DNA of 60,353 bases from contig JBBDYC010000009.1 of the NCBI GenBank assembly GCA_040901985.1, positions 1 through 60,353 on the forward strand. The letters are read 5' to 3'. The stretch comes from Gemmatimonadaceae bacterium. GTDB lineage: Bacteria > Gemmatimonadota > Gemmatimonadetes > Gemmatimonadales > Gemmatimonadaceae. Made by a program: the position numbers. This document shows, in pieces, positions 24,001-30,000 of the stretch. Numbering within the stretch: position 1 is the stretch's first letter; every line of letters begins with the position of its first letter.

Positions 24001-27000
24001 GGAGTATCCCGACAGAATCAAAATCATCACGGTGTACTGGGTGGAGCGCTGACCGCTCCCCCAGCGCCCCACCCGCAGCAGTGCAGCACCAAAACCCCAA
24101 CGACGGATAGAGTATGCAGCCCCACATGAAGTACGACCCCCAGGCGGACGCGCTCGCGATCCGCTTCACCCGCGCGAAGGATGCGCGCCCCGTGACCCGC
24201 GTCCTCGCCGGCAACATCCGCGGCGACTACGTCGGCGAGCAGCTCGTGGCGATCGAGATCCTCGCGGCGTCGCAGTTGATCGACCCGCGATCGCTCGCCA
24301 CGATCGCGCCCGCCGGCACCTGGCTCACGATCGAGGAAGCCGTGAAGGTCTCGAAGCGTCAGCCCACGACGCTGCGGAACGCGATCGCGCACAGCCGCCT
24401 GAAGGCCGAGAAGCGCGGCCGCGACTGGATGGTGCTCGAGAGCGAGCTCCTCAACTATCTCGAGTCACTGAGCCCGGCGGGACGCAAGCCGGCGAACAGA
24501 AGCGCGTCGCACCGGAACCGTTCGTCGACGGCGAAGGCGGCGAGATAGCGCCAAGACCGAATGGAGCTGGCCCACATCACGAGAGCCAGCTCCATTCTCA
24601 TACTGGACCTACTTCTTCTTGATCGTCTCGACGACCGTCGAGCCGGGCCGCTGCTTCGCTTCCTTGACGGGAATGAATTCTCCCGTCTTCGCGTCGCGGC
24701 CGATCTTAAAGGTTTTCGCCATAGCGAATGATCCTTTAGTTGAGGTGATACTGCACCTTGAGCTTCCTGGGCGATCTCCGGGCAGCTGGAACCGGAGCCC
24801 TTGCGCCGTTGGCCATACGACGCGAATATCACCTCGCTTGGGTGGACCACCTGAGTGGAGTAGAGGTGAGGACGGACGCCAATCCGCTCACCGGGAACGG
24901 CCCTCGGAGTGCTCATCACTCCGGGGGCTTTCTCGTACCTGCGGATTCACAGGCACAGACGGTATCTATGGTTCCCAAGTAGTAGTTGCAAGCCTGTTGC
25001 CGACGATCACAGGCTGCGGCCAAGCCGGCGGCTCACTCAGCGACGGGCCAGCGCACCGCCGATCACGCCAACCACCGCGCGCACGGCCGCGCCTCCCGGC
25101 CCTCCCGCCACGGCACCGAGCGCCGCGCCGCCGGCCGCATAGGTGACGTCGAACCGCACGGCGATGCGCTGAAGCGGAGCGATCACCGCAGTCGCCGCCT
25201 GGCGCTCCATCTCGGTCACGCGCTCGAGCGAATCCCCTCGCGCCATCGCGCGCCGCCTCCTCCGCATCGGTGTGCGCTGGCAGCGCCCGGCCCACCACCA
25301 GCGCGAGGAACCCGATCGCCGCGGCGAGCAACGTCCGCAAGGCGCGAGCCGCCGCTACGGCGCTCGAACCTCGGGCCCCTTGGCCCCCGTCGCGATCCGC
25401 CCCCACGCCGTCGTCGCGTCGTGCTCGAACACCACCAGCCACTTCCCCGCCTCGGCCTCCCGCCAGAGCGCGCGCTTGGACTCCAGCGTCACCAGCGGCT
25501 CCACGTCGTAGCCCATGATCCAGGCCAGCGGCACGTGCGCCGCCGTCGGGCAGACGTCGCCGAGGAAGACCGCCGTCTCGCGCTCGCTCGTGACGACGAT
25601 GCTCTGGTGGTGCGGCGTGTGGCCCGGCGTATGCCGCATCTTTATGCCCGGCACGAGCTCCCGGTTGGACTCGACGAGCGCCAACTGGCCGTTGTCGCGC
25701 AGGAGGTCCCAGTTGCGGGGAAAGTAGCTCGCCGCCGTGCGCTCGTTGGTGTGCGTCGCGTAGTGCATCTCGCCGCGATGCACGAGGTAGCGCGCATTGG
25801 GAAAGGTCGGCACGAGTTCGCCGTCCGCGGCGCGCATCGTATTGCCGCCGGCGTGGTCGAAGTGCAGGTGCGTGTTGATGACGACCTTCACGTCCCCGGC
25901 GGTGAATCCGGCGGCCGCCAGCGCCGCGTGGAGCATCGTCGGATGCCCGGGCGCGTCGGCCTCGATGCCGTAGATGTCGAGGAACTTCTGGTCCTCCTTG
26001 TTGCCGGCCCCGCTGTCCACCAGCACCAGCCCGTCGGGATGCTCGATGAGGAGACAGCGCATCCCGAGCGGGATCCGGTTGCGCTCGTCGGCGGGGATCC
26101 GTCGCTCCCAGAGCGGTTTCGGCACGACGCCGAACATCGCCCCGCCGTCGAGCCGCTGGCCGCCGGCCTGCAGGGCGTGGATGCGCCACGCCCCGAGCTG
26201 GCGCGATTCGTGGAGAGGGGTCGGCGCGGTCATCGGAGGGAAGTTAAGGGAACGCCACGGCGCAGCGCGCCCTCAGACTCCGTCCGCCCCGTCGGTCCCG
26301 CGCGGGAGCGCGGTGCGCCGCCGGGCCCGCGAGGTACGCGCCGCCAGCAGGCCCGCGAGGTCGTCCCAGGTATGCACGCCGCGATACGACGCGTCGCGCA
26401 GCAACCCCTGCAGCACCTCGGCGGTGGCGAGGGCATCCCCGCTCGCGCGGTGCCGGTCGGCGATCTGCACCCCGTAGTGATCGGCGACGGCGTCGAGGTT
26501 CCGCCGTGGCAGGTGCGAGAGCAGTCGGCGCGCGAGCCGCACCGTGCAGAGTTGCTCGGCGATCAGGGACGCCAGCGGCGTCGGCGCAATGCGCGCGAAC
26601 TCGGCGTCGAGGAAGCCGAAGTCGAACCGCGCATTGTGGGCGACGAAGACGCGCCCCACCAGGTGCGCAGCAAACTCGCCGGCGATGTCACGAAAGGTCG
26701 GCGCGGCGCGCACCATCCGATCGTCAATCCCGGTGAGCCGCGTGATCTGCCAGGGGATCGGCCGCCCCGGGTTCACGAGCGAATGGAAGGCAAGGGTCGC
26801 CGCATTGCCATCCACGTGCACCGCCGCGACTTCGGTGACGCGGTCGTCGCGCCAGGGGCTGCCCCCCGTGGTCTCGACGTCCACGACCACGAAGGGGAGG
26901 GTGTGGAGGAGCATCGGAGGAAAGTAACCGGCCCCTATTGAGCGGCGCGGGGAAGCGTGGTAGTTTGTGAAGGATTTCACAAGCCCACGATCACCTCGCC

Positions 27001-30000
27001 CGTGAAGCACATCGCCGAGTCCACCGTCCGACGGCTCTCGCTCTACCTCCGCTTCCTGGAGGAGTTCGACGCGCGCGCCCAGGCCACCGTTTCGTCGGGC
27101 GAACTCGCCCGGTTGGGTGGCACCACCTCGGCCCAGGTCCGGAAGGACCTCTCCTTCTTTGGCTCCTTCGGCAAGCGCGGCCTGGGCTACGCGGTGAAGG
27201 CCCTGATCGAGTCCATCCGCGAGATTCTCGGGCTCGACCACCCCTGGCCGACCGTCATCGTCGGCGCCGGGAAGATCGGTGCCGCACTCGCGCAGCACCG
27301 CGGATTCGCCGCGCGCGGATTCACCGTCGTCGGCATCTACGATGCCGATCCGGCAAAGGTCGGCACGCCGCTCGACCGGCTCACTGTGCGCGCCGATTCC
27401 GACCTCGAGCGCGACATCGCCCGCCTCAAGCCGCGGATCGCCGTGCTCTGCGTGCCCGTCGGGGTCGCCCAGCCGATGGCCGATCGCCTCGTCAAGGCCG
27501 GCATCAAGGCGATCCTCAACTTCGCCCCCGTCCCGCTGGCGGTCCCCGGGAGCGTCACGCTACGCACGGTGGATATGGCCACCGAACTTGAGATCCTGGC
27601 CTTCACCCTGACGAACACGCCCTGAGCAGGCGCAGGAAGTCGGCGGGCGAGAGCGTCTCGGGGCGCGCCGACGGCTCAATCCCTGCCGCGGCCAGCGCCT
27701 TGTCCGCCGCCACGGCGTCCCACGCGCGGACCGTCCGCAACACGCGCCGCATCTGCTTCCGGCGTAACCCAAACGCGGCCTGAACGAGCAGCCGGAACGG
27801 CTCCTCCTCCTCCGGTGCCATCATCGGCGCCGCGCGCGGCACGACCCGCAGCACCGCCGACTCGACCTTCGGCGGCGGCGTGAACGCCTTGGCCGACACC
27901 CCAAAGAGAATGGTCGCGTCGGCCAGCGCCTGCACGTTCACCGAGAGCGCGCCGTACGCCTCGCTGCCCGGCGGCGCGACGATCCGCTCCGCCACCTCGC
28001 GCTGCACGAGGTACACCGCGCGCTCGGGCCGCGGCCGGCGCATCGCGTGGAAGAGGATTGGGGTCGTGATGTTGTACGGGACGTTGCCCGCCAGCAGGTA
28101 CGGCCCGCCCGCGAGTGCACCGAGGTCCTGCTCGAGCACGTCCCCCTCCACCACCTGGAGACGCGGCTCGTCCTTCCAGCGCTCGGCGAGCAGCGGCGCA
28201 AGGTCGCGGTCCACTTCAATGGCAATCACCCGGCCGGCGCGCTTGAGGAGTTGCTCCGTTAGCGCGCCGCGGCCCGGCCCGATCTCGATCACCGTGTCGG
28301 CCGGCGTGGCGGCCAGCGTGTCGGCGATGCGGCCGAGCAGCCCAGGGTCGGTCAGGAAGTGCTGGCCGAGCCGCTTCCGCGGCCGCGCGTGCGCGGCCGG
28401 CCGGGGCTCGCTCACGAGTTCCTCAGCACCACCACCGCTTGATCGTCGTGCGCCGGCGTGCGCCCCATATGTCCCTCGACCAAGGCGAAGACCCCGTCCA
28501 CGATCCGCGACGGCACTTCCTTGCGGCGCGCCTTGAGCACCTCGAGCACGGCGGCCTCCCCGAGCGCCTTGCCGCGCGCGTTCCGGGCGTCGCTCACGCC
28601 GTCGGTGAAGAGGACGAGCAGGTCCCCCGCCGGATCCCAGGCGCGCGACTGCACGTGGAACTCGTCGGGCCCGAGGCCGAGCGGCGGATCCGTCGCGTCG
28701 AGCCGCGCCATCGCCCCGTCCTTGCCGAACACGAACGCGTGCGGATGGCCGGTATTCGTCCACCGCACCGTCCGCGCCTCGCGGTCCACCACCGCGTAGC
28801 AGAGGGACAGGTACATCTCCGTCTCGCGCAGTTCCTCCTCGAGGGTCGCGAGGAGCGCCGCCATCATCTCCGCCGGGTCGGCGGTCGTCTGCGAGTGGAT
28901 CGCCGTCGCGCTCATCACGAGCGCCATGATCAGCGCGGCGCGATACCCGTGGCTCGACACATCGCCCACCAACACGCCGGTGCGGCCGCCGCCGAGTCGG
29001 AAAAGATTATAGAAGTCGCCCCCCACGCCCTCCGCCGGCTCCACGCGCACCGCGCAGAGCGCCTCCGGCGCCACCACCCCGCCCGACGGGAGGAGCTTCA
29101 TCTGGAGGTCGTGGGCGAGCCGCATCTCCGAGGCCAGCCGCTCCTGGTCAATGCTCGCCCGCACCAGGCGGGCGTTCTGGATGGCCGTGCCGATCTGCGA
29201 CCCCACCGCGGCGACGAGCTTCTCGTCCCCCGCGCTGAACCCCTCGCCGCTACGCCGCCCGGAGAGACTCACCACGCCGAGCGGGATCCCGCCCTCGGGC
29301 GTCGTCCAGACGATCGGTACCGAAAGCATCGCGCCGCTGCGGAACGACGCCTCGAACTCGCTCTCCAGCACGCCCGCGTTCACCAGCAGCGCGTGGCGCG
29401 TACGGAACACGCGCGCCGATACGCTCACCGGGTCGTCAATCGGGATCGGCACCGGCTCGCTCGCCCCGGCGCTGCGGAGCGTCGTCACCGGCCGCAGCAG
29501 GCCGGCGCCGGCGTCGTGCACGAGGAGCGCGCCGTAATCCGCACCGACGGTGTCGGACACCTCGCGCAGGATCGTCCGCGCCGCGTCCTCCAGCGTCACC
29601 GTCCGCCCGAGGATCTCGCTGATCGAGTAGAGGAGGTTGATCTCCTCGTAACGCTCCAGCAGCTCGTCGGCAGCGTGGCTCGTCTCCCACTGGCTCTGCA
29701 GCATCTGGGAGAGCATCGGGACGAGCACGCCCATCCAGCGGCGCGGCGACGCATCGTCGTCGGCCACCGGCCCGAGGCCGAGCCAGGCGCGCGTGCGGCC
29801 CGGCACGCGCATCACCAGCTGCCGGCCGAGCGCCGTCTCGCGAACGGTCGGCTCGCTCCCCTCGATGCGCCCGAACTGCTCGGGCGGCGTGATGTCGCCG
29901 CCCGACGTCGCCGCCACCTCGAGCGGCGCGCCGGCGGCCGCCTGCGTCCAGAGCACCGCGCCGCAGCCGTAGCCGTCGGTGAAGGCGCCGAGGACCCGCG

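Follow-up and report, generated by a model that had tools for sequence, protein, structure and literature searches.

A predicted Rex regulon joining complex I, alternative complex III, a blue-copper protein and a split ATP synthase in the Gemmatimonadaceae

Introduction

The window analysed here, a 60,353-nt stretch of DNA from a Gemmatimonadaceae bacterium, carries a rex gene preceded by a perfect inverted repeat. A genome-wide survey's note had proposed that similar repeats elsewhere in the genome place the whole proton-pumping chain under the control of the redox-sensing repressor Rex. The locus raises the question of which regulator owns these repeats and which parts of the respiratory chain they would control.

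The rex gene and its own operator

The rex gene lies on the forward strand (27002..27625), starts with GTG and encodes a protein of 207 aa, composed of an N-terminal winged-helix domain (PF06971) and a C-terminal Rossmann domain (PF02629). The protein matches the NCBIfam Rex equivalog NF003992 with 253 bits (cut-off 226), and its best match in the PDB is Thermus Rex (E 3e-45). Alignment to the structures 3IKT and 1XCB shows that the recognition helix and wing (QVRKD and GxRGxGY) are the same as in Thermus Rex, and they are kept in the relatives compared. The Rex family is recognised by a dinucleotide-binding GxGxxG loop together with an acidic residue, an Asp; in the same alignment, the loop reads GAGKIG here and GMGRLG in Thermus, and YDADP stands opposite FDVDP at the acidic residue. 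At the position of the NAD-contacting Tyr98 of Thermus Rex, the window protein has a His, while Tyr is found in 78 of 80 named relatives; Tyr98 touches the NAD+ ribose and is described as highly conserved in Rex (PMC8063818). This substitution was not counted as family-defining because the curated models assign the protein to Rex. The window encodes a canonical Rex repressor, which presumably responds to NADH.

The predicted Rex operator, TTGTGAAGGATTTCACAA, occupies positions 26965..26982 (an inverted repeat, given no strand), 19 nt upstream of the GTG at 27002, and matches the consensus with 0 mismatches, its half-sites TTGTGAA and TTCACAA being separated by GGAT. It is expected to lie over the transcription start of rex: the putative -10 hexamer TAGTTT (26961..26966, forward strand) ends in two T with which the box begins, and a putative -35 hexamer, TTGAGC (26938..26943, forward strand), read from the sequence, stands 17 bp upstream of it. 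A consensus promoter scan found no promoter at rex, where the -35 lies under the scan threshold. Among 77 named rex loci with a box, a TA..TT hexamer occurs in the same register at 67; TTG-starting hexamers are also present upstream of the box in relatives, with a spacing of exactly 17 bp at just 20 of 77 named loci. The box itself precedes rex at all 29 loci having upstream DNA (at most 2 mismatches) and at 77 of 78 named loci (at most 1 mismatch), two sets that probably overlap.

Two neighbours frame this locus. A divergent gene for a DEDDh (DnaQ-like) exonuclease (26273..26914, reverse strand), 51 nt from the box, is probably a neighbour rather than a conserved Rex target, and the divergent gene at rex is arginine deiminase-like in many relatives. 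On the other side, the convergent ksgA/rsmA gene (27603..28415, reverse strand; PF00398) serves as a synteny marker for rex loss.

Rex boxes in the genome and their position at promoters

Eight boxes with at most 2 mismatches are found in this genome (69% G+C), all of them intergenic, against a mean of 0.43 in 30 dinucleotide shuffles of intergenic DNA. Besides the rex box, they precede actA (C9:235861, 0 mismatches), atpZ/I (C11:97901, 1 mismatch), a gene for a blue-copper, plastocyanin-like lipoprotein (C2:26729, 1 mismatch), clpX (C3:34808, 1 mismatch), atpA (C4:2176, 1 mismatch), nuoA (C6:95151, 2 mismatches) and a TetR-TolC/RND efflux operon (C8:8651, 2 mismatches). The last of these is absent from the survey's note, whose named sites are all present, 1-2 nt off the positions quoted there. 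All eight score above 20 bits and the next-best site scores 11, by a matrix that is partly circular, since the 267 sites behind it include those of this genome. The pattern occurs 2-11 times per genome in 41 of 41 genomes, compared with 0-2 times for a reversed control, and altered spacers (2, 3, 5 or 6 nt) yield six weak matches. In this genome, no box lies within 250 nt of the motif-scan matches to sdhB (the gene itself, not the start of the sdh operon), nosZ or ctaB.

Most boxes are placed on or just after the inferred promoters, as expected of a repressor; the survey, too, had read the position of the boxes before rex and nuoA as that of a repressor. Judged from conserved hexamers read by eye, the box would lie over or after the core promoter at rex, atpZ, atpA, the copper gene, nuoA and actA. 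The atpZ box starts with the -35 of conserved hexamers (TTGCGA-17-TAxxTT), the atpA and copper-gene boxes include the -10 hexamer, and the nuoA and actA boxes follow the -10 by about 17-20 nt. The fixed mismatches in the boxes can be explained by the promoter hexamers that overlap them, a geometry that suits a repressor; by the same token, the atpZ, atpA and copper-gene boxes are partly promoter sequence and would be conserved regardless.

Conservation of the targets in relatives

The act operon itself is identified by Pfam matches and gene order: ActA is a pentahaem cytochrome c (five CxxCH motifs), ActB a molybdopterin-like plus Fe-S protein, ActC is NrfD-type, and ActD is followed by ActE, a monohaem cytochrome c (one CxxCH). 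The 447-aa membrane-type gene after actE, which has no Pfam match, was named actF by position. ActB matches are found in 68 of 70 family genomes; a published survey, whose authors suspected that annotations had been missed, annotated alternative complex III (ACIII) in fewer than 10% of Gemmatimonadota genomes (PMC9426454).

The actA box is present in 17/17 genus relatives having upstream DNA and, at no more than 1 mismatch, in 39 of 49 family genomes, being perfect in 35 of the 49; no shuffle gave such a box even at 2 mismatches. Only 2 of 15 genomes of two sister families have it. The ACIII box is a family trait, rare in sister families, and the order-wide link drawn by the survey has to be narrowed to this extent. 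Ten family genomes are without the actA box, eight of which are not known to lack rex. The survey had left the atpI, copper-gene and clpX boxes unchecked in relatives: boxes precede atpZ/I and the copper gene in 23/28 genomes each, and the clpX box is present in relatives too, though patchily (10 of 29).

The terminal oxidase falls outside this pattern. No box with up to 2 mismatches was found in the 600 nt upstream of coxB, of the caa3 oxidase, in any of 28 family genomes (the best site, in one genome, has 3 mismatches), so the claim that Rex holds the whole proton-pumping chain does not stand. Some relatives have boxes at further textbook Rex targets, namely cydA (G195) and an NDH-2-like oxidoreductase (G207); nirK was suspected as a target in G200 and is unsupported by Pfam. 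In another genus of the class, Rex boxes are conserved within coding sequences, which may be a more surprising lead. Loci left out of these counts for want of upstream DNA are one rex locus, two named rex loci, three actA loci in the genus and one in the sister families, one locus each for the copper gene and coxB, and atpA of G061. The unpublished genomes G047 and G066 were excluded from per-locus counts; like G142, G175 and G247, they contribute to overall tallies alone and carry none of the claims.

Ownership of the boxes

Across genomes, the boxes co-occur with the rex gene. At least one box with no more than 1 mismatch occurs in 34 of 35 rex-positive genomes, and none occurs in 17 of the 21 genomes that lack a rex match. 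Within the order, the rex-less set amounts to only some four lineages. It leaves aside seven genomes that lack rex but belong to other classes, and it includes G266 by inference from the tally. With ksgA as a marker, rex is seen to be deleted from its syntenic position in G184 and G061. Decayed relics of boxes persist in G061 and G148, and G061 retains an atpZ site with 2 mismatches. Boxes are present despite the missing rex match in G268 (five) and G140 (two), where assembly gaps are the likely cause, ksgA being missing too in G268 and lying at a contig end in G140. G086 is also without ksgA, which leaves its rex loss unproven.

The survey had itself named a CRP homologue as a regulator that could share the sites. 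This homologue (C19:141257-141931) has a cNMP-binding and a Crp helix-turn-helix domain, its helix GASRETVSR contains an R-E-x-x-x-R that we take to be the residues of the E. coli CRP helix, and the Rex box embeds the CRP core TGTGA-N6-TCACA. That CRP owns the boxes, alone or mainly, is nonetheless very improbable. In seven genomes where rex is missing but CRP remains, its SRETVSR helix intact, the box counts are 1, 0, 0, 0, 0, 0 and 0; conversely, boxes are most abundant (30, 33 and 35) in three genomes with rex in which this query found no CRP orthologue at E<=1e-40. No box precedes crp, here or in 12 relatives examined, and CRP-like sites form a weak set of their own (9, compared with 3.5 in shuffles). 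CRP activator sites have fixed spacings, at -41.5 or -61.5, and the clpX box, the only one upstream of a promoter, is centred near -61.5 of the inferred promoter in this genome; however, its distance to the -35 varies from about 12 to more than 20 nt across relatives, which fixes no activator position, and the reading of this box as a class I CRP site was abandoned. CRP is largely excluded, and the presence/absence test offers a reusable means to separate Rex boxes from CRP boxes. It is even harder to credit that the matches are no operators and simply arise from the conserved, AT-rich sequence of promoters in a G+C-rich genome. Three boxes do include a -35 or -10 hexamer, yet the eight boxes far exceed the shuffled expectation, those of actA and nuoA do not overlap the hexamers, and in rex-less genomes the hexamers remain while the boxes decay.

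That Rex binds all the boxes and merely tunes their genes, other regulators setting the levels of complex I, ACIII and ATP synthase, deserves serious weight, even if we judge it somewhat less probable than its opposite. In the available text on Desulfovibrio alaskensis, qrcABCD has conserved Rex sites and is not induced in a rex mutant, and many other Rex effects are below twofold (PMC4045070); as described for Streptomyces avermitilis, oxygen limitation lowers atpI with or without Rex (PMC5355995). Several lineages without rex also still have these operons. Against this, the perfect actA box of most family genomes implies selection for tight binding, and the boxes overlap core promoter elements. 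The issue is one of effect size, compatible with ownership by Rex. The survey's sites are in place, and its statement that Rex "gates" these complexes is too strong in view of the qrcABCD precedent.

A model for Rex control of the respiratory chain

In this bacterium, as in most sampled members of its family, complex I, ACIII, ATP synthase and the putative blue-copper electron carrier are very probably under Rex control. Taken as a whole, the sequence evidence makes it highly likely that the predicted core family regulon consists of rex, nuoA-N, actABCDEF, atpAGDC, atpZIBEFH and the plastocyanin-like lipoprotein gene, as the survey had largely foreseen, with clpX and the TetR-TolC/RND operon as lineage-specific additions. 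At low NADH, Rex dimers would bind the 18-bp boxes and so close seven or eight promoters to RNA polymerase; as NADH rises, Rex would leave the DNA, as in the known mechanism. NADH supply would then scale ATP synthase and, on its donor side, the coupled chain, from NADH oxidation and the reoxidation of quinol to the likely electron acceptor of ACIII, the caa3 oxidase staying outside direct Rex control.

A broader reading, which we put forward tentatively and at slightly less than even chances, is that in the Gemmatimonadaceae the plastocyanin-like lipoprotein acts as dedicated acceptor of ACIII and donor to caa3 in a previously undescribed respiratory route. Complex I, ACIII, this carrier and the two ATP synthase operons would form a single module, scaled by Rex to the NADH supply and independent of the oxidase. 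If true, ACIII would for the first time be placed under Rex, together with a plastocyanin-type carrier serving respiration in this phylum. The predicted regulon as such provides a first regulatory map of respiration for a family that is widespread but little represented in culture, and it makes the copper lipoprotein a candidate carrier linking ACIII with the oxidase. As both the regulator and the logic of its control are familiar, the surprise is limited.

Comparison with known systems

The closest parallel is Rex of S. avermitilis, for which EMSA, ChIP and footprinting identify rex, nuoA-N and the atp operon as targets (PMC5355995, available text). The consensus TTGTGAA-N4-TTCACAA is common to both systems and the same targets are predicted here; in Streptomyces, the operators of atpI and nuoA extend over the -35 region. 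Streptomyces differs in having a single atp operon, which is split here with a box for each half, and in a regulon that adds cytochrome bd, ndh2, hem and hppA; the targets given in that text contain no ACIII or blue-copper protein. CRP/FNR-family regulons share the TGTGA-N6-TCACA core, and the boxes described here differ from theirs in co-occurring with rex rather than crp and in their repressor positions.

The survey called ACIII a new kind of target. The literature searched contains no ACIII proper or copper carrier under Rex, no Rex regulon in Gemmatimonas and no Rex linked with Chloroflexus or auracyanin, although comparative Rex studies or RegPrecise could use other gene names. The novelty is softened by D. 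alaskensis G20, whose predicted Rex regulon has sites before qrcABCD, a membrane redox complex related to ACIII; Qrc is, however, a menaquinone reductase of sulfate respiration and not a quinol-oxidising ACIII (PMC4045070). Caldithrix has both Rex and ACIII, with a Rex site reported, in the text available, at a hydrogenase operon (PMC5317091). The pairing of ACIII with auracyanin described in Roseiflexus and Chloroflexus (PMC10873879), in whose text no link to Rex was noticed, though no search aimed at it was made, is paralleled here by a blue-copper lipoprotein gene that shares the predicted regulon of ACIII and that lies 2-4 kb downstream of actF in four genomes of one sister family. The protein differs in being closest to plastocyanins (E 3e-14), with no auracyanin among the matches listed. 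Within the literature searched, the system is a known switch with two new predicted targets, ACIII and a small blue-copper carrier.

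Rex and Its Predicted Operators

The window is from contig C9 of the genome under study. The gene at window positions 27002-27625 encodes Rex, as established by Pfam, NCBIfam and PDB comparison, and a perfect match to the Rex-type operator TTGTGAA-N4-TTCACAA (hereafter, the box) lies 5′ of it at 26965-26982. The genome holds eight boxes with at most two mismatches. All eight are intergenic, whereas shuffling the intergenic DNA yields 0.43 such sites. They precede rex, actA of the alternative complex III (ACIII) operon, atpZ/I, atpA, nuoA, a blue-copper gene, clpX and a TetR-TolC/RND efflux operon. 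The genome-wide survey's note had listed all of these sites except the last, and each is recovered among the eight. The additional site (C8:8651; 8651-8668 of locus L009) stands before the fused TetR-TolC gene heading the efflux operon and is also seen in two genomes of the same genus, G079 and G020; it adjoins a second palindrome, possibly a TetR operator, and is divergent from msrB. Genes were called with a hexamer model of our own and their identities checked by Pfam.

Most of the named proteins nearest to the window Rex carry the label Gemmatimonadaceae or Gemmatimonas, and the family of this genome is therefore taken as Gemmatimonadaceae. At the residue aligned to Thermus Tyr98, the window Rex carries His, while 78 of 80 named relatives carry Tyr, a substitution that may shift NAD+/NADH sensing. 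In many family genomes (L171-L190), rex has an arginine deiminase-like gene as its divergent neighbour, which the autoregulatory box may therefore regulate as well.

Several other features of this genome were recorded. Two places, C4:39226 and C11:4502, share an almost identical box-like sequence whose spacer is 2 bases; the former is flanked by lpdA and a gene for a small membrane protein. A complete nitrous oxide reductase-like cluster (C3:14361-20646) has no Rex box. Two islands of atypical small genes lie between housekeeping clusters in the window (21476-24548 and 53089-55179); on reading, their genes appear toxin-antitoxin-like, Uma2-like and transposase-like.

Conservation and Placement of the Boxes

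Family samples are the best-scoring matches of each draw unless stated otherwise, and the genome under study is itself counted for atpZ/I, the copper gene, clpX and coxB. Among the best 30 of the 40 genomes matching rex, all 29 loci that have upstream DNA carry the rex box, as do 77 of 78 named loci. The actA box is perfect in all 17 genus relatives having upstream DNA. Of 49 family genomes (29 top matches plus 20 picked from the remaining 39 of 68 matches), 39 carry it with at most one mismatch; no shuffle reached even two mismatches. In two sister families, it is found with at most one mismatch in only 2 of 15 genomes, with a third at three mismatches and one further box, in G195, beyond that sample. 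For nuoA, three of five rex-positive sister-family genomes have a box with at most two mismatches and a fourth has one at three, while site-directed look-up gave nine family genomes; the 14 relatives with an atpA box were all site-selected. The sites that the survey's note had left unchecked in relatives fared unequally: atpZ/I (21/28 at one mismatch or fewer, 23/28 at two or fewer) and the copper gene (23/28, plus 11 sister-family genomes from a site-directed look-up without a denominator) keep their boxes in most genomes, and clpX has one in 10 of 29. The proposal that Rex governs the whole proton-pumping chain is not supported, as coxB of the caa3 oxidase has no box in any of 28 genomes.

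Promoters were assigned from conserved hexamers. At rex, the box begins within the last two bases of TAGTTT, itself 17 bp after TTGAGC, and a TA..TT hexamer in this register occurs in 67 of 77 named loci; the rex promoter escaped a consensus promoter scan. The putative -35 of atpZ coincides with bases 1-6 of its box, which would explain the constant TTGCGAA variant there. The putative -10 falls within the box at atpA and the copper gene, accounting for the T at position 7 of the atpA box, and at nuoA and actA the -10 precedes the box by about 17-20 nt. Judged from sequence, these six placements fit repressor positions, like those of the Streptomyces Rex operators (PMC5355995). Only the clpX box precedes a -35, and its distance from it varies.

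Rex or CRP as the Cognate Regulator

A CRP-type protein encoded in the same genome has a recognition helix that could read the same core, and the survey's note had raised this sharing as a caveat. Presence and absence across genomes show that the boxes track rex rather than CRP. A rex match is found in 173 of 201 phylum genomes; among class genomes without one, 17 of 21 have no box at one mismatch or fewer, and 34 of 35 rex-positive genomes chosen as comparators have at least one. Seven rex-less genomes, four of them from one genus, retain CRP with its SRETVSR helix intact; they hold 1, 0, 0, 0, 0, 0 and 0 boxes. Conversely, G149, G196 and G203 have rex and, with the query used, no CRP orthologue, and they carry 30, 33 and 35 boxes; G204 and G189, likewise with rex and no CRP orthologue by that query, carry 1 and 0. 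Traces of loss are visible in individual genomes. In G184, rex is gone and its convergent neighbour ksgA abuts the arginine deiminase-like gene; in rex-less G061, a transposase-like remnant follows ksgA and the sites at nuoA, atpZ and actA have decayed to 3, 2 and 5 mismatches; G148 retains a nuoA box relic with a 5-base spacer. G268 (5 boxes) and G140 (2) have boxes and no rex match; these exceptions seem to reflect assembly gaps, and the apparent loss of rex in G086 may have the same cause.

Separately from the boxes, the genome under study has a weak CRP-like TGTGA-N6-TCACA set (9 versus 3.5 in shuffles; among them C10:43485, C9:77849, C8:297400 and C8:122299), possibly the true CRP regulon. 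One of its sites is divergent from a gene that we take to resemble the transhydrogenase gene pntA.

Expansion of Boxes in Genus g108

In genus g108 of family f7, from another order of the same class, 7 of 10 rex-positive genomes contain 10-35 boxes. Genes called by our model, a few of them weakly, enclose 20 of the 35 boxes of G203. The loci concerned in this genus are L220:1501-1518 (G203:C1:1076966), L443, L445, L231, L453 and L460. A box in a carB-like gene, so named from reading its sequence, was compared in five genomes: G203, G149 and G196, three species, have it without mismatch although the amino-acid sequence differs, and it is missing in rex-less G259 and G257. In this protein, G203 resembles G259 (94%) more than G196 (91%). 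An ABC ATPase gene also holds an intragenic box, which G203, G149 and G196 share, likewise perfect despite changes in the protein. A limited literature search found nothing relevant on intragenic Rex sites.

Predicted Respiratory Role and Comparison with Known Rex Systems

Rex represses respiratory genes and is released by high NADH (PMC8063818). A rise in NADH would derepress complex I and ACIII, together with the copper carrier and both ATP synthase operons. More NADH would then be oxidised, more quinol reoxidised and the proton gradient put to greater use, with Rex autoregulation damping the response. Because the oxidase is outside the box set, this looks like capacity matched to electron supply and not a high-affinity-oxidase switch. 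Where relatives have cytochrome bd or NDH-2-like enzyme genes, boxes are found at them in G195 and G207; etfB has a box in G094, G095 and G097. A Desulfovibrio rex mutant speaks against strong gating: its effects are under twofold and qrcABCD is unresponsive (PMC4045070).

The N-terminus of the copper protein resembles that of a lipoprotein (judged by eye), the protein's closest matches are plastocyanins, and its gene lies a short way downstream of the act operon in four genomes (G033, G035, G037 and G039). In Roseiflexus, the blue-copper protein auracyanin is reduced by ACIII (PMC10873879). Taken together, these features make the copper protein a likely electron acceptor of ACIII. Of 70 family genomes, 68 have a match to the ActB N-terminus, a rate far exceeding the under 10% of phylum genomes in which ACIII is annotated (PMC9426454). 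As separate observations, a box with two mismatches before a multihaem cytochrome gene is kept in four genomes of genus g3 in family f3 (L095, L096, L099 and L102); in G038 and G040, tandem boxes precede a cupredoxin-like gene.

In its testable features, the Gemmatimonadaceae box set works like a Rex regulon. The literature searched, outside whose scope the main comparative Rex study fell, yielded neither ACIII proper nor a plastocyanin-like carrier as a Rex target, nor a Gemmatimonas Rex regulon. In S. avermitilis, Rex has been shown to target rex, nuo and atp; in Desulfovibrio, an ACIII-related complex is among its predicted targets. Comparative evidence thus supports well the prediction of a known regulator with two new targets, ACIII and the copper carrier.
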